Translations under genes and position numbers: made by a program
Shown: one piece after another, positions 8,401 through 26,353 of the stretch
How the letters are laid out: each line of letters starts with the position of its first letter
Position numbering within the stretch: position 1 is the stretch's first letter
Notes under the pieces: model-generated
What the model saw: only the letters and a program-made list of their open reading frames with translations
Database searches by the model: none
What the model was told of the DNA's origin: nothing
Assembly: GCA_963666935.1 (NCBI GenBank)
Contig: OY762936.1
Coordinates: forward strand, 1,283,949-1,347,948
Source: Christensenellaceae bacterium
GTDB taxonomy: Bacteria > Bacillota > Clostridia > Christensenellales > CAG-138
Reading direction: 5' to 3'
Length of the DNA stretch: 64,000 nt

Positions 8401-8987
8401 GATATGATTTTTATTGTAAAATCGTTGACAGCGCAGTGAAAGAGGCGCAGGGCGAGCCCGCCAGAAAAGAAGTGGATACCGTAATGGACGTTCCAATCCC
8501 TGCCAGCATACCAAGGATGTATATCCCGCGGGAAGCGGATCGGCTGGCCATGTATAAACGCATTGCCATGATTGGGGAAAAAACGGATCTTTACGACGTG
8601 CAGGATGAGCTGATCGACCGTTACGGCGAAATCCCGGCGGAGGTGGAAAACCTGCTGTACATCGCCCTTTTAAAGGTGGATGCATCCCGCGCCTATGTCA
8701 GCCAGCTTCTGGTGAAGGATGGGGAGGTGCGCCTAACGTTTCAGCCGGACGCGCCCATGGACGGCGGCAAGCTTTTGCAAACGGCGCAAAAAATTCCAGG
8801 CGCGCAGTTCCTGTTCAATGCCGAAATGCCCGCGCTGGTAATCCGCCGGAAAGCGGAAATCAAGGATTTCTTAGGGGAGTTGCCACAGATTGTTAACATG
8901 CTGTGCAATTGCATTGACTCGCAATCATGTTATAATGAGTCGAGATTAAAATCGGACACAGTCCGGGAGATGGAGAATATTGAATGA
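5493..8987 (+). CDS. mfd: Transcription-repair coupling factor Mfd
   Basis: 1164 aa. Helicase motifs GDVGYGKTEVA, DEEQRFG, TATPIPRT and QLRGRVGR, plus an N-terminal UvrB-like region. TTG start overlaps the pth stop. Confidence 0.95.
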   Translation: MTEPILRILETHPEYLRLREALQRGEGPVSIFGLGEGNKGHVAAALAESTGMPLVVVEPNEVSAARFADDFPGKALHFPARELLLSERSYAVSDNLQARRVAVLSALAEGAKPVLVVSIEALLQRVAPPEAFAAATKSVAPGDVLQPQALLRGLVAAGYERTEQCEDRGQVCLRGGYVDVFPINAENPVRVEFFDDEVDTLRSYDPLTQRSLETLSGVVIPPATELPLDEGARRRGLAAIDDRKNLEEEAERIRAGGGPKNPALLLPFFYPEEYTLLNYLSGAIILLDEPSRIEESAKVIYGEFLETLSALIRAGEAENEQATLMFSPLETISALGTRRTAVLSALSRTYGLIAPKVVCRFETRSISNYVGREDLLVEDIAAWRRAGVTVLLYAGPHAQRLQDGLADAGVIAPVKERLDREIVKGELLILGESLSRGMEYPELSLSVVTERELYGAERKRPEGKRRKRPQLAFSELAEGDLVVHELYGVGRFKGIKTLTVGGVQKDYLHLVYAGGDKLYIPTDQLDRVQKYIGGEEADTRLSKLGSGEWQKTVSKTRESVKKLAIDLAKLYGERKKQKGFAFAPDNAWQRRMEETFPYEETPDQLTCIEQIKEDMESGKVMDRLLCGDVGYGKTEVALRAAFKAVLSGKQVAILVPTTILAQQHYSTIAARFTGFPVNVEILSRFKSNKEQKVILDGLKKGTVDVVVGTHKLLSPSVKFKDLGLLVVDEEQRFGVGHKEQIKNIKQNVDVLTLSATPIPRTLHMSMTRIRDMSVIETPPAQRYPVQTYVMEYSNAIVREAILKELGRGGQVYYVYNHVRKMEHFAAALRELVPEARIAFAHGQMNERVLEKTMLEFMDKQYDVLLCSTIIESGLDIQNVNTIIIYDADAMGLSQLYQLRGRVGRGIRLGYAYLMFRRDKVLNENAEKRLTAIGEMTQFGSGFKIAMRDLEIRGAGNILGPEQHGHMAAVGYDFYCKIVDSAVKEAQGEPARKEVDTVMDVPIPASIPRMYIPREADRLAMYKRIAMIGEKTDLYDVQDELIDRYGEIPAEVENLLYIALLKVDASRAYVSQLLVKDGEVRLTFQPDAPMDGGKLLQTAQKIPGAQFLFNAEMPALVIRRKAEIKDFLGELPQIVNMLCNCIDSQSCYNESRLKSDTVREMENIE

Positions 8988-10426
8988 AAAGAACCGTTGC
9001 TCTGCTGCTTACTCTCATCATGTCGCTGTCCCTCCTTGCGGGGGGCTGCAGCATCTTGAAAAATGGGGAAGCAGCTCTGTCTGAATTGTCGAAGGGCACC
9101 CCTTCTAATGCATCCACCGCCAGTGATGACCAGCTTATTGTGGCCCAAGTGGGTGATGAAGTGGTGACCTATGACGAATATGCGGAAAAGTTCAACATGT
9201 ACGTGGCCTATTCCCAAAGCTACGGATATGATATCCTTTCCGATCCGAATAAGCTTGCGGCTACAGAAGATTCCATTATTGATATTCTAGTGGAGGAAAA
9301 AGTTCTGGCGTACCAGACTGCGCAGGCAGGCGTCGATGTCTTGGATGCCGCGCATGCCGTGGAGGTTGAGCAGAATGTAAACAATGAAATCGAGACTTTC
9401 CACGATCTCTATTTGGAGGAGGCGCAGGCTCGGGTTGCGGAGGATGCCACGCTGGATCTGGAGGAAACCATCAAAACCGTCGTGGCGGAGAATAGCGCCA
9501 TCTATACCGGGCAACTGATGTCCTATGACGCATTCATCCAATGGATTACGGACTATTACACAGATGTGTCTCTGCAGGATATGTTCCGGGAGCAATACCT
9601 TGCCGACGAGATCAATGTTACCATCAGTGATGAAGACATTCAGGCGTGGTATGAAACCGCGCTTGTGAGCACGCAGGCAAACTATGACGAGGACGGTGGC
9701 CTATATAAAGACGATCAGGAGTATGTAGAAATGTACGGCGGAGAGCCAGTGGTTTATGTGCCCGAAGGATACAGCCGCGTGCTTCATATTCTCATTGCCC
9801 CCCAGGGGGAAATGCCTGCGGAATACACCGAGAAACTCAACGCCATGGAGAATCTCAAGACTGAGTATGGCGAACTGGCCTTTAATGCCAAGTTGAGCGG
9901 TGCAGATAACGCGGCCCGCATGGATGCGGTCTTAAAGGAATATGTGCAGCTGCAAAAAGAGGCGCTGGCGATTGAGGATGCTCACTATGCCGATGCAAAT
10001 GCCCGCGCACAAGAGGCTCACGACAAGCTGGAGGCCGGAGAGGACTTTGCCTCCGTCATGGCGGAATATACCGAGGATGATTATATGCTCTCCTACGACA
10101 CTCTGGCCAAAAAGGGCCTGCTGATCAGCAACAAGTATGTGAGCGGCCTAGATTGGTCCGATGCCGTCAAGCTCGCCTTTGCGGCGCTGCGCCCGGGTGA
10201 ATACTCGAATATTATCATGGACGTTGATGGCTGCCATATCCTCTATTATCTATCCGATGAAACAGCGGGGAAAGTTTCGCTGGAGGACATTCGATCCGAG
10301 ATCACTCCTGTGCTTCTCGCAGAAGCACAGGATGCCGCTTGGAGTGAGGCTGTCGACGAGTGGAAGAATGCTGACAACGTGGTTATCAACGAAGAACTGG
10401 TGCGCAGCATCGGCGAAGTGAAGTAA
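8984..10426 (+). CDS. PrsA/SurA-like lipoprotein with degenerate parvulin (PpiC) PPIase domain
   Basis: Lipobox LLAGGC after the signal peptide. C-terminal segment FASVMAEYTEDD...GEYSNIIMDVDGCHILYY resembles a PpiC rotamase domain. ATGA overlap with the mfd stop. Confidence 0.6.
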   Translation: MKRTVALLLTLIMSLSLLAGGCSILKNGEAALSELSKGTPSNASTASDDQLIVAQVGDEVVTYDEYAEKFNMYVAYSQSYGYDILSDPNKLAATEDSIIDILVEEKVLAYQTAQAGVDVLDAAHAVEVEQNVNNEIETFHDLYLEEAQARVAEDATLDLEETIKTVVAENSAIYTGQLMSYDAFIQWITDYYTDVSLQDMFREQYLADEINVTISDEDIQAWYETALVSTQANYDEDGGLYKDDQEYVEMYGGEPVVYVPEGYSRVLHILIAPQGEMPAEYTEKLNAMENLKTEYGELAFNAKLSGADNAARMDAVLKEYVQLQKEALAIEDAHYADANARAQEAHDKLEAGEDFASVMAEYTEDDYMLSYDTLAKKGLLISNKYVSGLDWSDAVKLAFAALRPGEYSNIIMDVDGCHILYYLSDETAGKVSLEDIRSEITPVLLAEAQDAAWSEAVDEWKNADNVVINEELVRSIGEVK

Positions 10427-14912: not shown

Positions 14913-15800
14913 ATGAGTATTTTATTTAAAGATGTGAATTTGAGCCTGAAGGAAACTGTTCAGAAATATACAAAAGCTCTGAGAATACAGAATTCCGAAT
15001 ATACGTTTACTAGTATGCTGATGTGGGGCGGCGACGGCAAGATTGCCATTGCAGAAGAAGAAAATACGCTTTTTATCCGCTACACATACCCTAAATTTCC
15101 CCTATTTGTGCTTTCCCCGCTGACTTTTGGGCCGCTTGAACCGGCGGTGAAGCAGGCGGAAGCGGAAATGAAACGTCAGGGGGCAACACCTCAGTTTCGC
15201 GGCATTCAAAAGAAGGACAAAGGTGTTTACGAGGCACTGGGGTATGCGGTTCGACCGGACCGCAGCAATTTCGACTATGTGTACAGCGAGGAGAAACTAA
15301 GGACGCTGGCAGGCAAGAAACTCCATGGCAAGCGCAACCACATCAACCGATTTTTGGGAGAAAACCCCAGCTGGGAATACGTGAAAATTGACGAAAGAAT
15401 GCTGGAAGAATGCCTGGCCGTTTACAACGAATGGTGCCAGGGAAAGAGTGAAGACGACCCGGACTGCGTGGGGGAGGCGTACGCGATTCGCATGGGGATC
15501 ACCCATATGAAAGCGTTGGGGCTTGTGGGTGGCGGCATCCGCATCGATGGGAAGCTGGCGGCGTTCACCTTGGCAGAGCGCATTGATTCGGAGATGGCGG
15601 TGGTACACATTGAAAAGGCGGACGGCAAGTTCAATGGGCTTTATCCTTTTATCAACCAGCAGTTTGTCACCCGTGAGCTTTCCGATGTGTTATGGATCAA
15701 CCGTGAGGAAGATATGGGCATCGAGGGCCTCAGAACTGCGAAACTTTCTTACCGCCCGGATAGAATGATTGAAAAATATGAGGCGATTTTTGAAAATTAG
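14913..15800 (+). CDS. DUF2156 domain protein (stand-alone homologue of the MprF C-terminal aminoacyl-transferase domain)
   Basis: FDYVYSEEKLRTLAGKKLHGKRNHINRF ... VVHIEKA...GLYPFINQQF ... NREEDMGIEGLRTAKLSYRP reads as the DUF2156 signature. No TM segments. Confidence 0.8.
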   Translation: MSILFKDVNLSLKETVQKYTKALRIQNSEYTFTSMLMWGGDGKIAIAEEENTLFIRYTYPKFPLFVLSPLTFGPLEPAVKQAEAEMKRQGATPQFRGIQKKDKGVYEALGYAVRPDRSNFDYVYSEEKLRTLAGKKLHGKRNHINRFLGENPSWEYVKIDERMLEECLAVYNEWCQGKSEDDPDCVGEAYAIRMGITHMKALGLVGGGIRIDGKLAAFTLAERIDSEMAVVHIEKADGKFNGLYPFINQQFVTRELSDVLWINREEDMGIEGLRTAKLSYRPDRMIEKYEAIFEN

Positions 15801-16596
15801 ACACATCGAAAGAGAGGAATATGCGGCGGCCCAAACAGTATGGGATGTCTGCTTTCCGGAAGACGCAGATGGGTTTTCCGCTTATTACTTTCAAAAGCGG
15901 ACATGCTTCCAAAACGTGATCGCCGCCTTTGACAGGGACGTGATGGCGGCATGCTTGCATGTCTTGCCTCAGCAGATTTGGGTAGGTGATAAGGCGCAAT
16001 CGGTGGGATTCATCGCGGGTGTGGGCACGCTGCCCCGTTACCGGATGCAGGGCCTGGCCAAGGAGCTTCTTCGCTTTGCCGCGCAGGAGGGGAAAGAGAG
16101 AAACGATTACGCGCTGATGCTCAAACCGGTGGATCCACGGTATTACACCGGCTTCGGCTTTGTGCCCTATGTGGTGAAAAATCGCTTTGAGGCGACGGAC
16201 GCCTTCTGCCCCGGGACGGAGCTTCTGTCGCCAACGGTCGAGGCGCTTCATGGGTTTTATTCTGCCTTTGCGCAGCAATTCGACGGGATGCGGCTGCGGA
16301 GCCTTGCGGATATGGAGTTGCTCCTGGAGGAATGGAACATGGTGGGCGCGCGGGTGTTTATGAGCAGGCGCGGCTATGTGGTTTGCGCCGTGGAAGGGGG
16401 AGACCTTTTGGAAGTGGAAGCTGCCGGCGATAGCCTGCCGATTCTGTCCGATTTGGCCAAAAAAGAGGGAAAAGTGACTTTCTATGCCATGGACGGAGGC
16501 GGGGCGGCCGAGATGGGCGGCGAGGTGTTTACCATGATTTACCATCTGGCTTCGCCGGAGGAAAAACGACCGGCGTGGTCGCTGGAGTATTACTAA
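15769..16596 (+). CDS. GNAT-family (Eis-like) N-acetyltransferase
   Basis: IRHIEREEY...VWDVCFPED N-terminus and the RMQGLAKELL acetyl-CoA-binding loop. Overlaps the DUF2156 3' end by 32 nt. Alternative starts are ATG 15778 and TTG 15790. Confidence 0.65.
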   Translation: MKNMRRFLKIRHIEREEYAAAQTVWDVCFPEDADGFSAYYFQKRTCFQNVIAAFDRDVMAACLHVLPQQIWVGDKAQSVGFIAGVGTLPRYRMQGLAKELLRFAAQEGKERNDYALMLKPVDPRYYTGFGFVPYVVKNRFEATDAFCPGTELLSPTVEALHGFYSAFAQQFDGMRLRSLADMELLLEEWNMVGARVFMSRRGYVVCAVEGGDLLEVEAAGDSLPILSDLAKKEGKVTFYAMDGGGAAEMGGEVFTMIYHLASPEEKRPAWSLEYY

Positions 16597-16679
16597 AGCA
16601 AGATGGTTACCATTCTATTCCTTTTGGCTTTGCCGGATGGAAAAAGGCCGGTATAGCCGCACGTATTGCTAAAAAAAAC

Positions 16680-16708
16680 TTGACGGACAAGTGGATGTAA
16701 GCTAATAT
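16680..16708 (+). promoter_or_regulatory. Sigma-A-type promoter candidate for yajC
   Basis: TTGACG (16680-16685), 17-nt spacer, TAATAT (16703-16708). Confidence 0.5.
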
Positions 16709-16745
16709 GGTTATACGTATTATATAAAAAGGATGGTAGGATTGA

Positions 16746-17081
16746 ATGAGTTCTGATGCACTGTCTGGAATTTCCAGCTTTTTTTCCAACGGCGGGCTTT
16801 TGATTCTTCTTCTGGTGGCCATGTTCGCCATCATGATTATTCCCCAGCGTAGGCGGGACAAGAAAATTAAGAACATGCTTAGTGCCCTTAAGGTTGGCGA
16901 CCGTGTTCGTACCATCGGTGGCATCTACGGCACCGTATCCACGATTAAGGATGACATTCTGACCCTTTCCGTGGGACCCGATAAAGTGCGTTTGGTATTT
17001 GCCCGCGGCGCCATCGCCACTGTGGAGAATGTTGCGCAGGAGGGTGCGGCGGTGGAAAACACCATCGAAGACCAGAAATAA
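16746..17081 (+). CDS. yajC: Preprotein translocase subunit YajC
   Basis: Single TM helix followed by MIIPQRRRDKK...LKVGDRVRTIGGIYGTV, the YajC signature. Confidence 0.9.
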   Translation: MSSDALSGISSFFSNGGLLILLLVAMFAIMIIPQRRRDKKIKNMLSALKVGDRVRTIGGIYGTVSTIKDDILTLSVGPDKVRLVFARGAIATVENVAQEGAAVENTIEDQK

Positions 17082-17095
17082 TCTAGAATCCAACA

Positions 17096-17127
17096 ATGCC
17101 CGCGAAAGATCGCGGGCATATTTTTTT
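17096..17127 (+). terminator. Rho-independent terminator after yajC
   Basis: ATGCCCGCGA-AAGA-TCGCGGGCAT 10-bp stem followed by ATTTTTTT. Confidence 0.7.
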
Positions 17128-17162
17128 GGGGTGACGCATATATATACCCATGATGGGGGGGG

Positions 17163-17561
17163 ATGATGGTGCGCACTGCAAGAGCTGTGGAAAAAAATCC
17201 GGTGATGCCGGTGGAAATGATCAAGGCGGGATTTTTAGCGTCTCTGGTAAGTTTGGGGCTGGTGATCCTTTACGCCGTGGCGCTTAAGGAACAGATCCTA
17301 CAGGCGTCTACCATGAGCGTGTTCACTTCGGTGATTAAAGTGCTCAGCGGTTTTGTGGCGGGACTTTTGGCGTCCCGGAAATCCAAGAGCAGAGGATGGC
17401 TTTGGGGGATGTGCGGCGGCGCTGTTTACGCACTGATGGCATTTGTGATTTTTTCTATCATTGCAGGCGCGTTCAGTTTTTCTGCGGCATTGCTGTCGGA
17501 TGTGGGGATGTGTGCCGCTGCGGGAGCACTGGCGGCCATGGTGAGGCGGATGCTCAAATAG
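17163..17561 (+). CDS. Small polytopic membrane protein, about 4 TM helices (possibly the TIGR04086-like family)
   Basis: Hydrophobic stretches AGFLASLVSLGLVILYAV, VFTSVIKVLSGFVAGLLA, GGAVYALMAFVIFSIIAGAF and VGMCAAAGALAAMV. The family assignment is from memory only. The start codon is uncertain. Confidence 0.5.
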   Translation: MMVRTARAVEKNPVMPVEMIKAGFLASLVSLGLVILYAVALKEQILQASTMSVFTSVIKVLSGFVAGLLASRKSKSRGWLWGMCGGAVYALMAFVIFSIIAGAFSFSAALLSDVGMCAAAGALAAMVRRMLK

Positions 17562-17564
17562 TCC

Positions 17565-17593
17565 TTGTACAGCACCTGGTTTTGATGTATAAT
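17565..17593 (+). promoter_or_regulatory. Sigma-A-type promoter for the SCIFF precursor gene
   Basis: TTGTAC (17565-17570), 17-nt spacer, TATAAT (17588-17593) with TG immediately upstream. Confidence 0.55.
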
Positions 17594-17630
17594 ATTCGCA
17601 ATCGTTAGTTCAATATGGAGGATTATGAAT

Positions 17631-17774
17631 ATGAAGCACATTGAAACCATCCAGAAGCCTTGTATAAATACAAAGAGCAATTCAGGCTGTGGCGAATGCC
17701 AGGCATCCTGCCAGTCAGCCTGCAAGACTTCCTGTACTGTCGCAAACCAGAAGTGCAAGAGGGAAGGAAAATAA
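17631..17774 (+). CDS. scfA: Six-cysteine ranthipeptide precursor SCIFF (47 aa), not in the ORF track
   Basis: GGAGGA (17617-17622) lies 8 nt before ATG 17631. Translation is MKHIETIQKPCINTKSNSGCGECQASCQSACKTSCTVANQKCKREGK, ending at TAA 17772-17774. The GCGECQxSCQSACKTSCTVxNQxC core and MKHI N-terminus match the SCIFF family as I remember it. It lies immediately upstream of a SPASM radical-SAM enzyme. Confidence 0.85.
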   Translation: MKHIETIQKPCINTKSNSGCGECQASCQSACKTSCTVANQKCKREGK

Positions 17775-17791
17775 TTTCGATTCAAAATGCG

Positions 17792-17835
17792 CATGAGCAG
17801 TATTCCCTCAAGGGAGTTACTGCTCATGTTTTGTT
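17792..17835 (+). terminator. Intrinsic terminator/attenuator between scfA and scfB
   Basis: CATGAGCAGTA (17792-17802) pairs with TACTGCTCATG (17818-17828). An inner TCCC/GGGA extension is present, followed by TTTTGTT. Confidence 0.6.
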
Positions 17836-17851
17836 CATATAGGAGCCGAAT

Positions 17852-19195
17852 TTGATACATGCATTTAAGTTTAAAGAACTCAACCTGGTGCTGGACGTGG
17901 AAACCTCCGCGCTGCATCTGGTGGACGATACAGCGTTTGAAGTGATTTCTATGATGGAGCGGGGCGGCGACATCTATGCGTTGCCGTATCCCGAGCGCCA
18001 GATCCGGGAGATCGAAGAGGAGGCAAAAATCCTTCAAAACGAGGGTAGCCTGAATACGCCCGAGGCAGAGGTGCCCACGGGCATTTCAAAAGAGCAGGTG
18101 ATCAAATCTATGTGCCTGCACATCGCCCACGACTGCAACTTGCGCTGCCGTTACTGCTTCGCAGACAGCGGAGAGTACCAGCAGGGCCATCGAGCGCTGA
18201 TGAGCGCCGAAGTAGGGAAAAAAGCGCTGGAATTCCTGATAGAGCACGCTGGACGACGGCACAATCTGGAGGTTGACCTCTTTGGCGGGGAGCCGCTGAT
18301 GAACTTTGCCGTTGTGCAGGAAATCGTTGCCTATGGCCGAGAGCTGGAGAAACGATACGACAAGCAAATTCATTTTACGATTACCACCAACGGGTTAGGA
18401 CTTTCGCCGGACGTGATTCAATACCTTAACAAGGAAATGTCCAATATTGTGCTGAGTTTGGATGGACGGAAAGCGGTGCACGATTTCATGCGCCCCGCCC
18501 CCAACGGCAAGGGTTCTTACGACTTGTGCGTTGACAAGTTCAAACGGCTGGTCCAGTCCCGGGACAAGGATAAGGATTATTATGTTCGAGGCACCTATAC
18601 CAACCGGAACTTAGATTTTACCGAAGATGTAAAGCACTTTGTTGAACTTGGATTCGACCAGCTTTCAATGGAACCGGTGGTGCTGCCAGAGGAAAGCCCC
18701 TATGCCATTGTCGAAGAGCACGTGCAGGCGGTGCTAGAAGAGTACGACCGACTGGCGGACTACATCATCGAGAGCCGAGAGAATGGGAAATGGTTCAACT
18801 TCTTTCATTTTATGATCGACCTTTCCGGCGGCCCGTGCTTGAAAAAGCGTATCGCGGGATGCGGAGCGGGCGTGGAGTATGTGGCAGTGACCCCAGAGGG
18901 CGACATCTATCCCTGCCATCAGTTTGTGGGAATGCCACAGATGAAGATGGGGTCCGTGCTCAGCGGAGAACTTGATCAGAGCATCCGAGAAAAATTCGAA
19001 GCCTGTACGGTGCTTTCAAAACCCATATGCCGGAATTGCTGGGCGAAATACTTCTGTTCCGGCGGCTGCGCAGCCAATGCCTACAAGTACAACGGAGATA
19101 TTGCCATACCATACGAGATGACTTGTAAGTTTTTAAAGAAACGGACGGAGATCGCGGTGGGTCTCTATGCGAAAGAAACCATGGAAGGCGAATGA
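17852..19195 (+). CDS. scfB: Radical SAM/SPASM thioether-forming SCIFF peptide maturase
   Basis: CNLRCRYC (CX3CX2C) radical-SAM motif. C-terminal Cys-rich SPASM region (CGAG...YPCHQF...CRNCWAKYFCSGGCAANA). TTG start lies 6 nt after AGGAG. Adjacent to the SCIFF peptide. Confidence 0.88.
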   Translation: MIHAFKFKELNLVLDVETSALHLVDDTAFEVISMMERGGDIYALPYPERQIREIEEEAKILQNEGSLNTPEAEVPTGISKEQVIKSMCLHIAHDCNLRCRYCFADSGEYQQGHRALMSAEVGKKALEFLIEHAGRRHNLEVDLFGGEPLMNFAVVQEIVAYGRELEKRYDKQIHFTITTNGLGLSPDVIQYLNKEMSNIVLSLDGRKAVHDFMRPAPNGKGSYDLCVDKFKRLVQSRDKDKDYYVRGTYTNRNLDFTEDVKHFVELGFDQLSMEPVVLPEESPYAIVEEHVQAVLEEYDRLADYIIESRENGKWFNFFHFMIDLSGGPCLKKRIAGCGAGVEYVAVTPEGDIYPCHQFVGMPQMKMGSVLSGELDQSIREKFEACTVLSKPICRNCWAKYFCSGGCAANAYKYNGDIAIPYEMTCKFLKKRTEIAVGLYAKETMEGE

Positions 19196-19198
19196 AAA

Positions 19199-21559
19199 TT
19201 GCGGATTTACCAGGCAACCAGACAACAATATGACGACGTGCCGCGAGCTGAGGGGATGACTCCGCGGCTGGCGGCGCTTCTGTATAACAGGGGCTGCAAA
19301 ACCGCACAGGAGATGGAGCGGTTTTTAAACCCATCGGAAGAACAACTCTTTGACGCGACACGCTTCCTCGACATGGACAAGGCGGTGGAGCGGATTCGCA
19401 CTGCGATCGACAAAGGGGAACGGATCTGCATCTTTGGCGACTATGATACGGACGGCGTTGCCGCCACGGCGATCCTCTACGACTCCATGAGGAAAGCGGG
19501 GGCAACGGTTGCTTACCGAATTCCCTCCCGCCGTGGCGACGGCTACGGGCTGAGCAAAAACGCGGTTGAGGAGCTGGCACAAGAGGGGACTGCCCTCGTC
19601 ATTACGGTGGATAATGGTGTGAAAGCCAACGAGGAGATCGCGCTGGCAAAAACATATGAAATTGATGTGGTGGTGACGGATCACCACCAGTGCGGGGAGA
19701 GCCTGCCCGTTTGCGCGGCAGTGCTTTGCGCTACACGGGGAGACAACACATACCCCAACCGGGACTTGGCGGGGGCGGGCGTGGCTCTAAAACTATGCGA
19801 AGCCCTTTTCGGCCGGGAGACGGCACGAAAATACATTCCGCTGGCGGGGCTTGCCACGGTAGCGGACATGGTGCCGCTGCTGGGGGAGAACCGGGCGCTG
19901 GCCGCGCTGGCCCTTAAAATGATTAATCGGGAAGAATGCCCGCTAGGCCTTACTGTATTGGGAAACCACGTAAACGACGGCAGCCGGGCCTTTGGTTCCC
20001 GGGATTTTTCCTTTGGCTTTGCGCCGCGGATCAACGCAGCGGGACGCATGGAAGAGGCGGGAATTTGCGTGGAACTTCTTTGTACGGACGATGGGGCACG
20101 GGCCTTTGAAATTGCAGAAAAATTGGAAGAATTCAACCGACTGCGCCAAGCTGAGGAGAGCCGGATCACGGAGGAAGCCGTTGCACGCATTGAGGAGACG
20201 GACCTGACCGAGAGGCGATCCATCGTTCTTTTTGACCAGAGCTGGAACGTGGGAGTGGTGGGTATCGCCGCCAGCCGGATTGCGACACGGTATTTCCGCC
20301 CCACCCTCCTTCTGACACAGCGGGACGGGCTTCTTACGGGCAGCGCCCGGAGCATCGAAGGGGTAGACCTCTACGGGGCGCTTGCCACCAATGCTGCACA
20401 CTTCGTCCGCTTCGGCGGCCATGCATATGCCGCCGGCGTCACTTTGGAACCGGACAGGCTAAAAGACTTTCAGACAGACTTGGAAACTACCCTTTCGGAT
20501 TTGCCGGCGGAGTTTTTTCTGCCGCGGACGTTTTATGAGTGTGAGGCAGAACTTGAGGAACTGACGCTGGATCTGGCGGATGAGCTGGCATTGCTTGCAC
20601 CCTTCGGGGAAGGCAACCCCCTGCCCACATTCCGAACGGACGGCTTGCTAATGAGCGGGCTGCGCAGGATCGGAAGCGACGCCACCCATCTGAAAGCCAA
20701 GGCCTCGAAGGGCGGCCGCTTTGGGGAAGTGATTGCCTTCGGTATGGGGTACCGATTTGAGGAGATCAGCGACATGGAGCGTTGCGACATGGTTTATGCT
20801 GTGGACGTGAACGAGTGGAACGGCATGCGCAGCCTGCAGATGCGCGCGCAGGAGATCCGAGGCACGCTTATTGCGGACTCTCGCCAATACGTTCTGCGGC
20901 ACGGCGAAAAATTTGCGGATGCATTTTGCCGTAACTTGGCGTATAATAGTTGCGGTGTGCGAGTAGAAACCGACGAAAGGGAAACACTAGCCGCGTTTTT
21001 ACAGCCCTGCGCGGGGACGCTGATTCTGGCGTTTACACCGCAAGGCGCGCAGGACCTGCTGGACGCACTGGCTGATAAGGCGATGAGCGGACTACCGGTG
21101 AGCTTTTTTAAAACCCATAAAAGCCCCGCCGCTTACCATGAGGTCGTGCTGGCTCCGGCACTGGATGCGCTTGACATCAGCCGGTTTCGGCGGATTTTGC
21201 TTTACGACTGCGCAGATTCCGGCGTGATTGCGCGGCTCCAAGAACTGGCCCCTGGGGCGAAGATCGCAGCGGGGCGCCACCGTCAATTCAAAGTCGCTTT
21301 TTCCAGAGAAGACGCCGCTGTCTTTTACCGGGCCGTTGCCGCAACAGGGCGGAGCTTTCACAGCCTTGAGGAGCTATTGGACTATCTGGCCCGAGTTACC
21401 GGGCGCCCACGCCACGAGGCAAAGCTTTCGGCAGATATATTTATGGAACTGGGATTGATGCGATTGGAAGGGGACGTTGCCTTGCTTTCGAGCGAAGAAC
21501 GGCGCGACCTCATGGACAGCCCCACCTTTGCGAAGCTAAAAGAGGTTGCGGGCATATAG
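19199..21559 (+). CDS. recJ: Single-stranded-DNA-specific exonuclease RecJ
   Basis: DHH motifs (IFGDYDTDGV, VITVDNG, VVVTDHHQ) and a DHHA1 region (GGHAYAAG). 786 aa with the long C-terminal extension typical of Firmicutes RecJ. Confidence 0.9.
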   Translation: MRIYQATRQQYDDVPRAEGMTPRLAALLYNRGCKTAQEMERFLNPSEEQLFDATRFLDMDKAVERIRTAIDKGERICIFGDYDTDGVAATAILYDSMRKAGATVAYRIPSRRGDGYGLSKNAVEELAQEGTALVITVDNGVKANEEIALAKTYEIDVVVTDHHQCGESLPVCAAVLCATRGDNTYPNRDLAGAGVALKLCEALFGRETARKYIPLAGLATVADMVPLLGENRALAALALKMINREECPLGLTVLGNHVNDGSRAFGSRDFSFGFAPRINAAGRMEEAGICVELLCTDDGARAFEIAEKLEEFNRLRQAEESRITEEAVARIEETDLTERRSIVLFDQSWNVGVVGIAASRIATRYFRPTLLLTQRDGLLTGSARSIEGVDLYGALATNAAHFVRFGGHAYAAGVTLEPDRLKDFQTDLETTLSDLPAEFFLPRTFYECEAELEELTLDLADELALLAPFGEGNPLPTFRTDGLLMSGLRRIGSDATHLKAKASKGGRFGEVIAFGMGYRFEEISDMERCDMVYAVDVNEWNGMRSLQMRAQEIRGTLIADSRQYVLRHGEKFADAFCRNLAYNSCGVRVETDERETLAAFLQPCAGTLILAFTPQGAQDLLDALADKAMSGLPVSFFKTHKSPAAYHEVVLAPALDALDISRFRRILLYDCADSGVIARLQELAPGAKIAAGRHRQFKVAFSREDAAVFYRAVAATGRSFHSLEELLDYLARVTGRPRHEAKLSADIFMELGLMRLEGDVALLSSEERRDLMDSPTFAKLKEVAGI

Positions 21560-21593
21560 TGTGATTTAAATTGCGGGAAGGGAGGGAAAGTGT

Positions 21594-23780
21594 ATGGAAC
21601 ATCTGTTGGAGCTGTGCAGGCCGCGGTTCTCCGAAGAAGAGATGCAAAGCCTGGTTAAAGCATGTGAATTTGCGCAAAAAGTGCACGAAGGGCAGCGTAG
21701 ACAAAGCGGCGAACCATACATTACCCATCCTATTAAAGTGGCTGAGATGCTGGCGGAGATGGGAATGGATCCCAGCACCATCATTGCGGGGCTGCTCCAC
21801 GATACCGTGGAGGACGGCAAAGACATTACCACGCAGATACTGGAGGACCAGTTCGGCAAAGACATTGCCGAGATGGTGGATGGCGTCACCAAGCTGACGC
21901 AGTCCAGCAACAAAAGCGCCGTGAACCGCGAAGAGGTTCAGGCAGAAAACATGCGCAAGATGTTCCTTGCAACTGCCAACGACGTGCGGGTGGTGATCAT
22001 CAAGCTTACGGATCGGCTGCATAACATGCGCACGCTGCAATACTGCAGCGAAGAAAAACGAATTCGAAAAGCCCGGGAAACACTGGAGGTCTATGCGCCG
22101 CTGGCCCACCGCTTTGGCATGGGTGCGATGAAGTGCGAGCTGGAAGACCTTTGCTTCATGTATTTGTACCCGGACGATTACAAAAAGCTGAAAGACGCCA
22201 TGATCCCCTACCAGCAGCAACGGATGCAGCTGTTGGAATCTGCCATTAAAACCATTAATGAGAAGCTTAATGAGGCGGGAATCGAAGCCACCATTAACGG
22301 ACGACCAAAGCACCTTTTCAGCGTATATAGAAAGACCATTAGGCTCAATACCAGCATTGATGAGATCTACGACCTCGTCGCCATTCGCGTCATCGTCAAC
22401 ACCATCAACGACTGTTACGCGGCCTTGGGCATTATCCATTCTGTTTGGAAGCCCATGCCCGGCCGGTTTAAGGATTATATCGCCATGCCCAAGCCCAATA
22501 TGTACCGCTCCCTGCATACGACCTTGTTTGCCGGGGAGGGCGGGATGCCCTTCGAGGTGCAGATTCGCACGCCGGACATGCACCGGGCGGCGGAATATGG
22601 CATTGCGGCCCACTGGATGTATAAAGAGGGCCGAAAAGACCAAGATGAGCTGGATAACAAAATGGCATGGCTCCGGGAAGCGTTGGAGATGGAGCACTAC
22701 ACCGACAATACTCGCGAATTCATTGAGAACGTTCGTAAAGACTTTTTCGGAGACTACGTGTATGTGCTCACACCGCAGGGGAAGATTATCGACCTGCCTA
22801 CGGGCTCCACGCCGCTGGACTTTGCCTACCGCATCCATTCCAACATCGGCAACCGCACCCAGCACGCCAAGGTGAACGGCGCCATCGTGCGGCTGGATTA
22901 TAAGCTTAAGACCAACGATGTGGTGGAAATTATTACATCCTCTAACGCCGCACCCAGCTTGGACTGGCTTAAGGTGGTCAAGACCCAACAAGCCAAGGCG
23001 AAGATACGCCAGTGGTTCAAAAAGACAAACCGGGAGGAAAACATTCAGCGGGGCCGCGACATGCTCAGCGAGTCCATCCGGCGTCAGGGCTTTCAGCTTT
23101 CTGACTTGGACAAGGACTGCTTTGCGGATTTGATCAAACGGTTCAATATGTCCGAGGTGGAGGATGTGTACGCAGCCATCGGCTACGGCGGGATTACCAC
23201 GGCACAGGTTACCCACAGGCTGCTGGAGAATGTACGCAAGGTCCAGCGGGAGGCGGAACTCAAGGAAAAGCTGGATAAGCTGAGCAAGGGAGAGGAAGAA
23301 CCCCAGCCAGCAAGGAGCGCAAACACCGACGTTGGGAACGGCGTGATCGTGAAGGGCTGCCCCAATATCGCGGTTCGTTTCGCTCGGTGCTGCAGCCCGC
23401 TGCCCGGGGATGCCATTATCGGCTACCTGACCAGAGGTCGGGGCGTTTCCGTTCACAGGAAGGATTGCCCCAATATTGGGAATTTGATGATGGAACCGGA
23501 TCGGGTGGTGGAGGCACAGTGGGCGGAGCACGTGAAGAGCTCCTACTTGGCCACCATACAGGTGGTGGCGAGCGAGCGCACGGGACTGCTCATGGAGATT
23601 TCCCAGGTACTGGTGGGCATGAATATCTCCATTACATCCATGACCGCGAAGACGGATCCCAACAGTATGGTATATACCCAGTTGTCCTTCGAGGTGAAGG
23701 ACGCAAATCAGCTGGATTCCATCACAAAGAGCATTCGGAAGATACACTCGGTGAAGGACGTATTCAGAATAAAGGCATAA
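21594..23780 (+). CDS. relA: Bifunctional (p)ppGpp synthetase/hydrolase RelA/SpoT (Rel)
   Basis: HD domain (HPIKVAEML...LLHDTVEDG), synthetase motif (YRSLHTTL), and TGS and ACT C-terminal domains. 728 aa. Confidence 0.95.
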   Translation: MEHLLELCRPRFSEEEMQSLVKACEFAQKVHEGQRRQSGEPYITHPIKVAEMLAEMGMDPSTIIAGLLHDTVEDGKDITTQILEDQFGKDIAEMVDGVTKLTQSSNKSAVNREEVQAENMRKMFLATANDVRVVIIKLTDRLHNMRTLQYCSEEKRIRKARETLEVYAPLAHRFGMGAMKCELEDLCFMYLYPDDYKKLKDAMIPYQQQRMQLLESAIKTINEKLNEAGIEATINGRPKHLFSVYRKTIRLNTSIDEIYDLVAIRVIVNTINDCYAALGIIHSVWKPMPGRFKDYIAMPKPNMYRSLHTTLFAGEGGMPFEVQIRTPDMHRAAEYGIAAHWMYKEGRKDQDELDNKMAWLREALEMEHYTDNTREFIENVRKDFFGDYVYVLTPQGKIIDLPTGSTPLDFAYRIHSNIGNRTQHAKVNGAIVRLDYKLKTNDVVEIITSSNAAPSLDWLKVVKTQQAKAKIRQWFKKTNREENIQRGRDMLSESIRRQGFQLSDLDKDCFADLIKRFNMSEVEDVYAAIGYGGITTAQVTHRLLENVRKVQREAELKEKLDKLSKGEEEPQPARSANTDVGNGVIVKGCPNIAVRFARCCSPLPGDAIIGYLTRGRGVSVHRKDCPNIGNLMMEPDRVVEAQWAEHVKSSYLATIQVVASERTGLLMEISQVLVGMNISITSMTAKTDPNSMVYTQLSFEVKDANQLDSITKSIRKIHSVKDVFRIKA

Positions 23781-23789
23781 GGACAAGAA

Positions 23790-24236
23790 ATGCGAGCGGT
23801 TGTACAGCGGGTTGCCGGTGCTTCGGTGACTATTGACGGGAAAATAGCGGGGGAAATTGACAAGGGCTGCATGGTGCTTCTGGGCGTTGAGGACATTGAC
23901 GAACAGGAGGACTTGGATTATATCTGCGACAAACTCATTGGGCTGAGGATTTTTGAAGATTCTGACGGCAAGATGAATCTTGATATCCAGGACGTGGGGG
24001 GCGGCATATTGCTCATTTCTCAGTTCACCCTCTTGGGGGATGCCCGTAAGGGTCGGCGGCCGGGCTTTACAAAGGCGGCGAGGCCGGAGAAGGCGATCCC
24101 TATGTATGAGGCGGCCGTTGCGAGGCTCCGCGCAAGCGTTTCGGTAGAAACCGGGCGGTTTGGGGCGGATATGAAGGTGGCGCTGGTGAATGATGGGCCT
24201 GTCACAATACTTTTGGATAGCAAGAGGACGTTTTAA
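23790..24236 (+). CDS. dtd: D-aminoacyl-tRNA deacylase
   Basis: MRAVVQRV...ISQFTLLGD...RPGF...NDGPVT are canonical Dtd motifs. Confidence 0.93.
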   Translation: MRAVVQRVAGASVTIDGKIAGEIDKGCMVLLGVEDIDEQEDLDYICDKLIGLRIFEDSDGKMNLDIQDVGGGILLISQFTLLGDARKGRRPGFTKAARPEKAIPMYEAAVARLRASVSVETGRFGADMKVALVNDGPVTILLDSKRTF

Positions 24237-24872
24237 ATGGAATTGGTTACAATGATCACAGGACCGCTGGAAGTGAACACGTATATCCTGAGCAACAAGG
24301 TGGGGGAATGCGTGGTGATCGATCCGGCAGATGCGAAAAGAACTCGGGAATTGCTCAAAGAGCATGGCCTGATCTGTACGCACGTGCTGCTGACCCACTG
24401 TCATTTCGATCACATCACAGGTGCTGCGGAGATGCAGCGGCAGGGGGCCAAGATTTGCATTTCAGCCATCGACGCGCCGGGCTTGGAAAACGACAATTTC
24501 AACCTGAGCTTGGGCAACATGTTTCGGGTTGAGCACTGCGTGGCGGATGTTCTATTGCATGACGGGGATATTTTGGAGGCGGCGGGGGTAAAGATTCACG
24601 TCATTGCCACGCCGGGACATACCAGAGGAAGTCTGTGTTTTCTTTTGGAAGAGCAGCGCATACTCTTTTCCGGGGACACTCTATTTTTCCAAAGCGTAGG
24701 GCGCTGTGATTTCCCAAGCGGGAGCGCCTCGGATTTGATGACCTCCATCCAGAATCGGCTTATGACCTTAGAGGGAGATTATAAGGTGTATCCCGGCCAC
24801 GGGGAAGAGACTATGCTCCAAAGAGAAAAGAAGTTTAACCCGTATTTGAAGGTAGATGTTTCGCAATGGTAA
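24237..24872 (+). CDS. MBL-fold metallo-hydrolase (glyoxalase II-like)
   Basis: THCHFDH metal-binding motif, ...TPGHTRGS..., ...GD.LF. 211 aa. Confidence 0.8.
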   Translation: MELVTMITGPLEVNTYILSNKVGECVVIDPADAKRTRELLKEHGLICTHVLLTHCHFDHITGAAEMQRQGAKICISAIDAPGLENDNFNLSLGNMFRVEHCVADVLLHDGDILEAAGVKIHVIATPGHTRGSLCFLLEEQRILFSGDTLFFQSVGRCDFPSGSASDLMTSIQNRLMTLEGDYKVYPGHGEETMLQREKKFNPYLKVDVSQW

Positions 24873-26353
24873 CCCTCTTCACAAATCACGCTGAATTTGC
24901 AAACGACATTGCGGAGGAGATTCGGCTGTTTACGGACACATCGCAAGCCGTGACCGTATCTCCCTTACCCGCGGTATGCAAAGATGGCATGACTGTGACG
25001 GCGGAACTCGTGGAAAATGCTGATGTCTGGACCGCACGGGCAAGGGCGGCCGCAAACGGAAAAATCGGAGACTATACTTATGTTTGCAAAGCGGTGGAGG
25101 GCGGCGATCTTTTGAAAAAGCGCTACCGGAAACGTGCTCTTAAGATTGCGGTATTCCGCGCCATGCGGCAGGTGTTTGATGCGTTTACCCCATGGGGTTC
25201 TTTGACGGGAATCCGGCCCACGCGGCTGCTTCGGGAACTTTCCGAACAGATGGGGGAGCAGGAGGCCCTTCGTTTTCTGGAGGAGGAATTCGACGTCGCT
25301 CCCGAAAAGCTGGCTCTGGCTCGGGAAATTGCGCAGATTCAGCGGCCCATACTGGCACAAGGCCACTGGCGGAGGGATTTAGATGTTTACATTGGCATTC
25401 CCTTCTGCAAAACCCGGTGCCTTTACTGTTCCTTTGCATCGGAAGTGCGAAGGAAGGATACGGATATGGCGACGTACATTGCCGCGCTAAAAGAGGATAT
25501 CCGACTGGGCGCGGCGGCGGCGCAGGAGAACGGATACCGCATTCGGAGTATGTACATGGGCGGCGGCACGCCCACCGTGCTCACCGAGGAAGAACTTACG
25601 GATGTGCTTTCCTGCGCGCTGGCAGCTTACGGCGGCTTTGGGCGGGAACTGACGGTGGAGGCGGGCAGACCGGATACCATTACGAGGGGCAAGTTGAGAG
25701 CAATCAGAGAACTGGGCGCCGGGCGGATTTCCATAAACCCCCAGACCATGAACCCTTTTACCTTAGAGATCATCGGCAGAAATCACGGCCCCGAGGAAGT
25801 GCATACGGCGTATCAGACCGCCCGGGACATGGGATTTTGCATTAATATGGACCTCATCGCGGGGCTCCCCGGCGAGGATGCGGAAGACGTGAAACGCACG
25901 CTGGATGAGATTGTGCGTTTGGCTCCGGACAACATGACCATGCATACCCTGGCATTGAAGCGATCTTCTGTACTCAAAGAGCGGCTGAGCGAATTCCAGC
26001 CGGCACCCGCCGAAACGGCGGACGAAATGGTGCGGCTGGGTGCGGCGGCGGCGGAACGTATGGGTATGCGGCCCTATTACATGTACCGGCAAAAGTACAT
26101 GCGGGGCAATCTGGAAAACGTGGGTTACGCGCTGCCGGGGAAGGAATGCCTCTACAATATCGACATGATGGAAGAGACTACGTCCATTATGGCGCATGGG
26201 GCAGGATCTATGACAAAACGCATCTTTGGCGGCGAACAGCGGGTGGAACGGATCCCCAGCCCCAAGGATATCGGGACCTATATCGCCAAGGTGGAGACAC
26301 TTTCAGCGCACAAGCGGGCGTTGTTTGGCGCAGGGGATGCTCTTGCCCCGTAG
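24866..26353 (+). CDS. hemZ: Radical SAM coproporphyrinogen-dehydrogenase-like protein HemZ
   Basis: IPFCKTRCLYCSF radical-SAM motif. N-terminal extension and length (495 aa) fit the HemZ subfamily. Located upstream of hisS. Confidence 0.7.
   Translation: MVTLFTNHAEFANDIAEEIRLFTDTSQAVTVSPLPAVCKDGMTVTAELVENADVWTARARAAANGKIGDYTYVCKAVEGGDLLKKRYRKRALKIAVFRAMRQVFDAFTPWGSLTGIRPTRLLRELSEQMGEQEALRFLEEEFDVAPEKLALAREIAQIQRPILAQGHWRRDLDVYIGIPFCKTRCLYCSFASEVRRKDTDMATYIAALKEDIRLGAAAAQENGYRIRSMYMGGGTPTVLTEEELTDVLSCALAAYGGFGRELTVEAGRPDTITRGKLRAIRELGAGRISINPQTMNPFTLEIIGRNHGPEEVHTAYQTARDMGFCINMDLIAGLPGEDAEDVKRTLDEIVRLAPDNMTMHTLALKRSSVLKERLSEFQPAPAETADEMVRLGAAAAERMGMRPYYMYRQKYMRGNLENVGYALPGKECLYNIDMMEETTSIMAHGAGSMTKRIFGGEQRVERIPSPKDIGTYIAKVETLSAHKRALFGAGDALAP

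Follow-up and report, generated by a model that had tools for sequence, protein, structure and literature searches.

Our analyses identify, with high confidence, a canonical two-gene SCIFF ranthipeptide system (SCIFF, for six cysteines within a stretch of forty-five residues) in a Clostridia-class bacterium, encoded within a 64,000-nucleotide stretch of contig OY762936.1 from a Christensenellaceae genome, hereafter the window, whose own coordinates are used throughout. The system comprises scfA, which codes for a precursor peptide, and scfB, which codes for a radical S-adenosylmethionine (SAM)/SPASM maturase. An initial annotation, made from the DNA letters, had proposed a SCIFF precursor and such a maturase amid housekeeping genes, a reading that curated profile models bear out. 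The pair is real and was correctly read, yet it is already known and automatically annotatable through NCBIfam and Pfam, the exact ScfA and ScfB sequences both being present already in one NCBI record. On comparison with related loci, the traits that had been presented as special are norms of the family or the clade and not properties of this locus. The remaining novelty is likewise at the family level and not specific to the window, and concerns an under-studied subfamily with a leader cysteine (Cys11), a conserved putative attenuator hairpin between the two genes, and the adjacency of a DUF3792 gene.

The identity of both proteins was established with curated hidden Markov models (HMMs), the SCIFF and SCIFF-maturase models of TIGRFAMs having been proposed as a check in the initial annotation, and both proteins exceeded the curated cutoffs, at E values far outside chance. 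ScfA scored 65.8 bits against TIGR03973 (six-cysteine ranthipeptide SCIFF; cutoff 50, E = 2.4e-18) and reached 70.6 bits with the Pfam model PF13165 (cutoff 27, E = 1e-19), with a family-HMM alignment that spans model positions 1-43 of 43, untruncated. Its core, C20-x2-C23-x3-C27-x3-C31-x3-C35-x6-C42, has the six-Cys SCIFF spacing, preceded by a leader (residues 1-19) that contains Cys11 and followed by the tail KREGK; the core segment ...SACKTSCTVANQ.C is invariant among relatives and the peptide holds the CKTSCT donor/acceptor segment. For ScfB, the model TIGR03974 (thioether cross-link-forming SCIFF peptide maturase; cutoff 425, E = 3e-186) gave 619.7 bits and the SPASM domain model TIGR04085 (cutoff 27) gave 70.9 bits, and the protein fell under the cutoff in the remaining models tested for maturases of RiPPs (peptides made on the ribosome and then modified post-translationally), namely PapB, nif11, QhpD, CcpM, RumMC and others. 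All ten Fe-S ligand cysteines of CteB, the characterized maturase of Clostridium thermocellum, are kept in ScfB (mapped via the ligand list of PMC10177961): C95/C99/C102 for the radical SAM cluster, C337/C355/C406 for auxiliary cluster 1 and C393/C396/C402/C425 for auxiliary cluster 2. Residues 1-85 of ScfB are colinear with the N-terminal region of CteB that bears its RiPP recognition element (RRE), and no Pfam RRE model matched there. Finally, the SCIFF criterion of PMC5300114 places the precursor within about 500 bp of the ScfB radical SAM gene, and here a spacer of 77 nt separates scfA from scfB on the same strand.

Direct reading of positions 17400-19400 gave an open reading frame (ORF) for the protein MKHIETIQKPCINTKSNSGCGECQASCQSACKTSCTVANQKCKREGK, ending in TAA at 17772-17774, with 8 nt between its Shine-Dalgarno sequence and the ATG. 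The ORF surfaces only when the cutoff is lowered to 30 aa, and then as 49 aa from an in-frame ATG at 17625; the start is 17631, because the ATG at 17625 sits just 2 nt from the ribosome-binding site and because MKHI is the family-consensus N-terminus and the NCBI copy has 47 aa. The maturase gene begins with TTG, 6 nt downstream of its own ribosome-binding site, and the TIGR03974 alignment starts at ORF residue 2 and that with CteB at residue 1. All of the sequence statements of the initial annotation were confirmed, both for scfA (GGAGGA, ATG 17631 and a 47-aa ORF missing from a list with a 60-aa cutoff) and for the next gene, whose 447-aa product carries the motif C95-NLR-C99-RY-C102 (CNLRCRYC) and a Cys-rich C-terminus. 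The locus thus illustrates how a 60-aa cutoff hides SCIFF genes, a known annotation problem: gene calling easily misses them owing to their size, and TIGR03973 recognizes them readily (PMC5300114).

ScfB relatives and their flanks were collected from 80 species-representative genomes (loci L001-L080), mostly metagenome-assembled genomes of Christensenellaceae, Christensenellales and other Clostridia, among which the best ScfB relative was 67% identical. A SCIFF ORF lay immediately 5' of the enzyme gene in 78 of the 80 loci, and the six-Cys pattern was found at the same frequency (78/80). A search of 5.8 billion proteins retrieved 2,372 SCIFF relatives of ScfA, the named ones being called 'six-cysteine ranthipeptide SCIFF', and a search at the level of representatives returned 1,211 clusters (50% identity). 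SCIFF ranthipeptide clusters have been described in a 2026 preprint as conserved over orders of Clostridia, with at most one per species (bioRxiv 10.1101/2025.02.12.637840).

Two features of ScfA that had been offered as local specifics, a seventh cysteine outside the core and a Lys/Arg-rich tail, are indeed present but are shared with many relatives. Of 174 distinct nearby SCIFF peptides (those of the 80-genome loci pooled with the database matches listed), 149 have Cys11 within a P-C-[I/L/M] motif, and Q-x-P-C-[I/L] occurs in nearly all peptides of the related loci. Among 137 more diverse representatives of 50% clusters, 45 have a Cys in the leader, which in about 27 stands at position 11; at this position classical SCIFFs have N/S/T/A, followed by L/I. 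On this distribution Cys11 is a hallmark of a large SCIFF subfamily and is not unique to the locus. It is missing in about nine of the 80 loci, which are phylogenetically clustered, and is replaced by Ser (KPSI) in two loci, L041 and L050, that both fall inside the Cys11 clade, a replacement which suggests that the leader Cys is not strictly required. As for the tail, peptides of the Cys11 subfamily normally have short basic ends terminating in K (AKEEK, QKEKK, KREGK and others). A sub-group of SCIFF peptides (L043, L045, L048, L054, L060, L062, L067, L069, L071, L076-L078 and L080) carries a long conserved C-terminal extension, e.g. ...CANKENxxVLAGxEGKLNHxFGK, reaching about 20 residues past the last Cys, and this extension may be a follower or recognition sequence.

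The near-consensus promoter that the initial annotation had assigned to scfA was similarly recovered as a predicted site and lost its local character on comparison. The site (TGTACA/TTGTAC-16/17-TATAAT) shows 10 matches out of 12 and has the top score within 16500-19400; of 78 related loci, 66 have a promoter-like site with at least 9/12 matches within 120 nt 5' of scfA, as opposed to 6 of 78 control segments inside scfB, and the hexamers are identical in L002 and L006. Between scfA and scfB, a 39-nt hairpin of the 17-bp class (17791-17829, about -25.5 kcal/mol) is followed by the T-run TTTTGTTC (17829-17836). The minimum free energy of the 80-nt scfA-scfB spacer is -29.3 kcal/mol (z = -5.2), none of 200 shuffles being as stable. 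A hairpin with dG <= -10 and five or more T among the 8 nt that follow it, lying no more than 150 nt past scfA, was present in 67 of 79 loci, compared with 1/79 and 10/79 in two control sets internal to scfB. The roughly 50 stem sequences represented among these hairpins are unrelated, so that the structure is kept and the sequence is not, and an Rfam scan of the whole window, including the scfA 5' untranslated region and the spacer hairpin, matched no known RNA family. The hairpin is probably a leaky terminator or a transcript-stabilizing element that leaves peptide mRNA in excess of enzyme mRNA, and scfB would be expressed by read-through because only about 20 nt, with no promoter-like site, separate the hairpin from its ribosome-binding site. 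In other RiPP operons, e.g. nisA-nisB and sboA-albA, stem-loop attenuators separate the precursor gene from the modification genes, and a strong hairpin likewise stands between a short precursor gene and an enzyme gene that has no evident promoter; to our knowledge, such an attenuator between scfA and scfB has not been previously described for SCIFF loci.

On comparative grounds, the SCIFF pair lies in an inherited block, yajC-(DUF3792)-scfA-scfB-(secDF)-recJ-relA-dtd. A strong intrinsic terminator follows yajC, and the DUF3792 gene and scfA would therefore be transcribed separately from it. Downstream, no terminator-like site was detected in 19195-19400, between scfB and recJ, and for this reason scfB is probably co-transcribed with recJ. 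The recJ ORF opens with TTG 19199, but the RecJ model (TIGR00644) aligns from residue 22 and GAGGGG precedes an ATG at 19256, which is probably the actual start and would leave a 60-nt gap after scfB. The order recJ-relA-dtd-MBL (MBL, metallo-beta-lactamase-fold hydrolase) is found 3' of scfB in 57 of the 68 loci with enough flank. In 43 of 58 loci the gap from the scfB stop to the start of recJ is about 55-95 nt, and just 8 of 58 show a terminator-like site in it; in the other 15 an insert of 2.3-5.4 kb separates the two genes. Among the inserts of five loci scanned with Pfam, four held secD/secF and one (L073) a glycoside hydrolase, and most of the unscanned inserts have a two-ORF layout as in the secD/secF cases. 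Loci listed as Pfam-confirmed for secD/secF between scfB and recJ are L013, L020, L040, L068 and L072, and two-ORF inserts resembling them occur in L014, L019, L024-L028, L050 and L053. In relatives bearing secDF the SCIFF pair lies between yajC and secDF, and the lineage of the window is without secDF at this position. The genes yajC and secDF form one operon in many bacteria, and the order yajC...secDF-recJ-apt-relA-dtd is syntenic in Bacillus too.

The upstream neighbour of scfA is more variable, being an acetate kinase gene (ackA) in 40 of 77 loci and a DUF3792 gene in 14 of 77 (Pfam); tblastn under-detected both yajC and DUF3792, for which Pfam and local profiles were used. In the window this neighbour, noted initially as a small membrane protein, is present as described but belongs to a named family, DUF3792/TIGR04086 (TIGR04086, 64.7 bits, cutoff 30; PF12670, 66.6 bits, cutoff 31.3), and the database copy has the same 131 aa. 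Besides the copy in the window, a local iterative profile search located it in 16 related loci (L001, L005-L008, L015, L016, L035, L040, L051, L053, L062, L063, L069, L076 and L077), in all 17 on the same strand and 35-189 nt 5' of scfA, mostly 70-87 nt, and usually preceded by yajC. No DUF3792 gene was detected within 6 kb in 62 of the 79 SCIFF loci examined. A word-indexed homology search with the protein returned just three near-identical proteins, and a literature search on DUF3792 or TIGR04086 in bacteria found nothing. The protein, a neighbour specific to certain lineages, is possibly an accessory component of the SCIFF system, or else its position reflects mere synteny with yajC.

Taken with what is known of the family, these observations are compatible with the following course of events. 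Going by the homologous pairs CteB/CteA and Tte1186/Tte1186a, ScfB would use its N-terminal domain to bind the MKHIxTIQ leader and the radical SAM cluster would cleave SAM to generate a 5'-deoxyadenosyl radical. This radical would abstract a side-chain hydrogen from Thr33 or Thr36 (CteA Thr34/Thr37), and Cys31 (Cys32 in CteA), with auxiliary cluster 1 as its probable anchor, would form a Cys-S-to-Thr-C-gamma thioether; the conserved CKTSCT segment and the homology to CteB both point to a link of the ranthipeptide type (beta/gamma carbon). To judge from the anatomy of the locus, attenuation at the hairpin would set the scfA:scfB stoichiometry, and read-through would supply scfB and possibly the downstream housekeeping genes recJ-relA. 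Several points weigh against this interpretation. The chemistry at scfA and scfB is taken wholly from homology at 50% identity, and in the model systems themselves the reports on the acceptor conflict (Thr37 in vitro, Thr34 in Escherichia coli), the fate of the other five Cys is acknowledged to be open and the mature product is not settled (PMC8326336, PMC8172795). As to expression, a simple terminator scan did not report the scfA-scfB hairpin, whose T-run TTTTGTTC is imperfect; the attenuator role is deduced from comparative structure; and the lack of a promoter-like site for scfB in the approximately 20 nt past the hairpin is compatible with read-through but is not proof of it.

As to the biological role, SCIFF was described by Haft & Basu in 2011, who took its near-universal presence in Clostridia to speak against an antimicrobial role, as reported in PMC8326336. 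In C. beijerinckii the locus was disrupted by Chen et al. (2020), who studied C. ljungdahlii too; sporulation genes decreased and agr increased in the C. beijerinckii disruption, and a role in quorum sensing was proposed, according to PMC8326336 and PMC8102284. The initial statement that the role is not established in any organism is therefore out of date and true only in part, since a phenotype has been published. When the window genes were scanned with profiles, no gene for an exporter, a protease or a receptor turned up in the scfA/scfB flanks; the absence of a protease and an exporter, from which the initial annotation had argued against a bacteriocin, was thus upheld, but the argument is not new, having been made by Haft & Basu (2011), as PMC8326336 relates. 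The role most consistent with the published knockouts appears to be that of a signalling or regulatory peptide, and not of a bacteriocin.

Other interpretations can be weighed against that of a canonical ranthipeptide pair. It is unlikely that the peptide serves chiefly as an intracellular metal- or Fe-S-binding or redox peptide, with the thioether incidental and the placement amid Sec-accessory genes and those of the stringent response reflecting a housekeeping role, a sharper form of the housekeeping link suggested initially. Just one of the six Cys is cross-linked in the characterized homologues (PMC8326336), in the crystal structure a CteA Cys that forms no cross-link is a ligand of auxiliary cluster 1 (PMC10177961), and the position within yajC-...-secDF-recJ-relA is conserved with no exporter nearby. 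However, this synteny block is ancestral; because the positional conservation of the pair is explicable by vertical descent, the housekeeping neighbourhood, which is real, is weak evidence of a housekeeping function, and the upstream neighbour varies as described above. The published knockouts indicate signalling phenotypes (PMC8102284), and a search of the Protein Data Bank with the ScfA peptide returned just ferredoxin-motif resemblances (E 0.3-0.9), which are weak and not significant.

Quite improbable, in our judgement, is a more elaborate proposal, in which the Cys11 subfamily, typical of Clostridia resembling Christensenellales, would use its leader Cys in a manner beyond the reach of classical peptides (a seventh thioether, a leader-core link, or an Fe-S/metal ligand) and the SCIFF pair, with DUF3792, would be tied functionally to YajC-SecDF or to the recJ-relA operon. 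If the tie to recJ-relA were true, peptide production and stringent-response gene expression would be coupled through read-through of the scfA hairpin.

That the pair makes a classical antimicrobial sactipeptide or bacteriocin which is secreted and bears C-alpha thioethers, with DUF3792 as immunity protein or exporter, is very improbable. SCIFF was first assumed to be a sactipeptide (PMC8172795), ScfB retains a weaker similarity to sactipeptide maturases through the RumMC and GggB models, and the DUF3792 gene adjoins scfA wherever it occurs (17/17). Against this, ScfB fails every sactisynthase-type model by a wide margin (RumMC 107 vs 720, GggB 64 vs 650), the thioether of CteA is at C-gamma and not C-alpha (PMC8326336, PMC8172795), no DUF3792 lies within 6 kb in most SCIFF loci (62/79), the flanks hold no protease or ABC exporter, and SCIFF, at no more than one per species and conserved across orders of Clostridia, is distributed unlike bacteriocins (bioRxiv 10.1101/2025.02.12.637840). 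Lastly, the notion of an orphan enzyme, ScfB-like or of another SPASM type (anSME, QhpD-like or not_ScfB), that acts on another substrate, the 47-aa ORF being incidental, draws on a high raw score with the orphan-exception model not_ScfB (NF040492, 526.8 bits) and on matches to the QhpD and anSME models, but is already effectively refuted and hardly credible, since that score is well short of the NF040492 cutoff of 855 when TIGR03974 is well above its own, and since the peptide passes two curated models independently and is syntenic in 78 of 80 loci.

What may be of use to those working on SCIFF is the hairpin or attenuator, the yajC-(DUF3792)-...-secDF-recJ-relA placement and the large seven-Cys P-C-[I/L] subfamily.

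Table 1. Features of the scfA-scfB locus and its immediate context, in window coordinates.
Feature	Position	Strand	Basis
Sigma-70-like promoter of scfA	17565..17593	+	-35 TTGTAC/TGTACA 17565-17571, -10 TATAAT 17588-17593
Shine-Dalgarno GGAGGA of scfA	17617..17622	+	sequence read
scfA, SCIFF precursor, 47 aa	17631..17774	+	TIGR03973 and PF13165
Terminator-like hairpin and T-run, scfA/scfB spacer	17791..17836	+	folding and comparative structure
Shine-Dalgarno AGGAG of scfB	17841..17845	+	sequence read
scfB, radical SAM/SPASM SCIFF maturase, 447 aa	17852..19195	+	TIGR03974, CteB
DUF3792/TIGR04086 small membrane protein, 131 aa from ATG 17166	17166..17561	+	TIGR04086, PF12670
yajC (context)	16746..17081	+	TIGR00739, 59.6 bits vs cutoff 44.2
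Intrinsic terminator after yajC	17096-17119		10-bp stem, 7 GC pairs, T7 tail
recJ (context)	19199..21559	+	TIGR00644, 478.7 bits vs cutoff 396.9

The window as a whole is a housekeeping region of the chromosome; the genes upstream of the block are, in order, ftsA, ftsZ, mfd, ispDF, an EamA transporter (on the minus strand), DUF4349, SIMPL, LPG_synthase_C and GNAT, followed by yajC, DUF3792, scfA, scfB, recJ, relA/spoT, dtd, the MBL-fold hydrolase, hemZ, hisS and aspS. A candidate second RiPP maturase at 24866-26353 was rejected, as it corresponds to HemZ. The LPG_synthase_C (DUF2156) protein, which stands alone (14913-15800), overlaps the GNAT gene (Acetyltransf_9, 15769-16596) by 32 nt; neither has an NCBIfam match at E <= 1e-5, and the pair recurs only in a few closest relatives. 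Two ORFs among the ftsA/ftsZ/mfd/ispDF genes, 8984-10426 (480 aa) and 886-2151 (421 aa), gave no NCBIfam match at E <= 1e-20. A 967-aa open frame on the minus strand (21510-24413) runs antisense to relA and dtd; it is most likely an artefact that stems from the composition of the GC-rich coding region.

Among the known systems, the closest parallel to the pair described here is CteA/CteB (thermocellin) of C. thermocellum, which has the same two-gene architecture. ScfB aligns to CteB (5WGG/5WHY) over residues 1-442 with 50% identity (E = 3.9e-144), and the CteB ligands C104/108/111, C344/362/413 and C400/403/409/432 pair with ScfB C95/99/102, C337/355/406 and C393/396/402/425, respectively. The core CGECQ.SCQSACKTSCT.(A/G)NQ.C is common to CteA and ScfA; the leader of ScfA is one residue shorter, and CteA Cys32, Thr34 and Thr37 therefore correspond to ScfA Cys31, Thr33 and Thr36. 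Unlike CteA, ScfA has Ala in place of Thr at QASC; its leader is of the Q-x-P-C-[I/L] subfamily and has Cys11 at the position of the N/S/T/A found in classical SCIFFs, and its tail is the basic KREGK, in contrast to the ENK-type tails of classical SCIFFs. In the crystal structure of CteB a non-cross-linking peptide Cys ligates auxiliary cluster 1 (PMC10177961).

Tte1186a/Tte1186 of Caldanaerobacter subterraneus also belongs to the SCIFF family, its peptide having a classical six-Cys leader as described in the literature and its enzyme, with three [4Fe-4S] clusters, forming a single Cys32-Thr37 thioether in vitro. Tte1186 and CteB each form one thioether from Cys32 (PMC8326336, PMC8172795), and Hudson et al. 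(2019), according to the same sources, assigned the CteA link to the C-gamma of Thr, with Thr34 and not Thr37 as the acceptor upon expression in E. coli. More distant is PapA/PapB (freyrasin) of Paenibacillus polymyxa, whose maturase is a homologous radical SAM/SPASM ranthipeptide enzyme: ScfB scores 269 bits on the PapB model NF047865, less than its cutoff of 340, and PapB forms six Cys-Asp C-beta links on CX3D repeats, whereas ScfA is without CX3D repeats.

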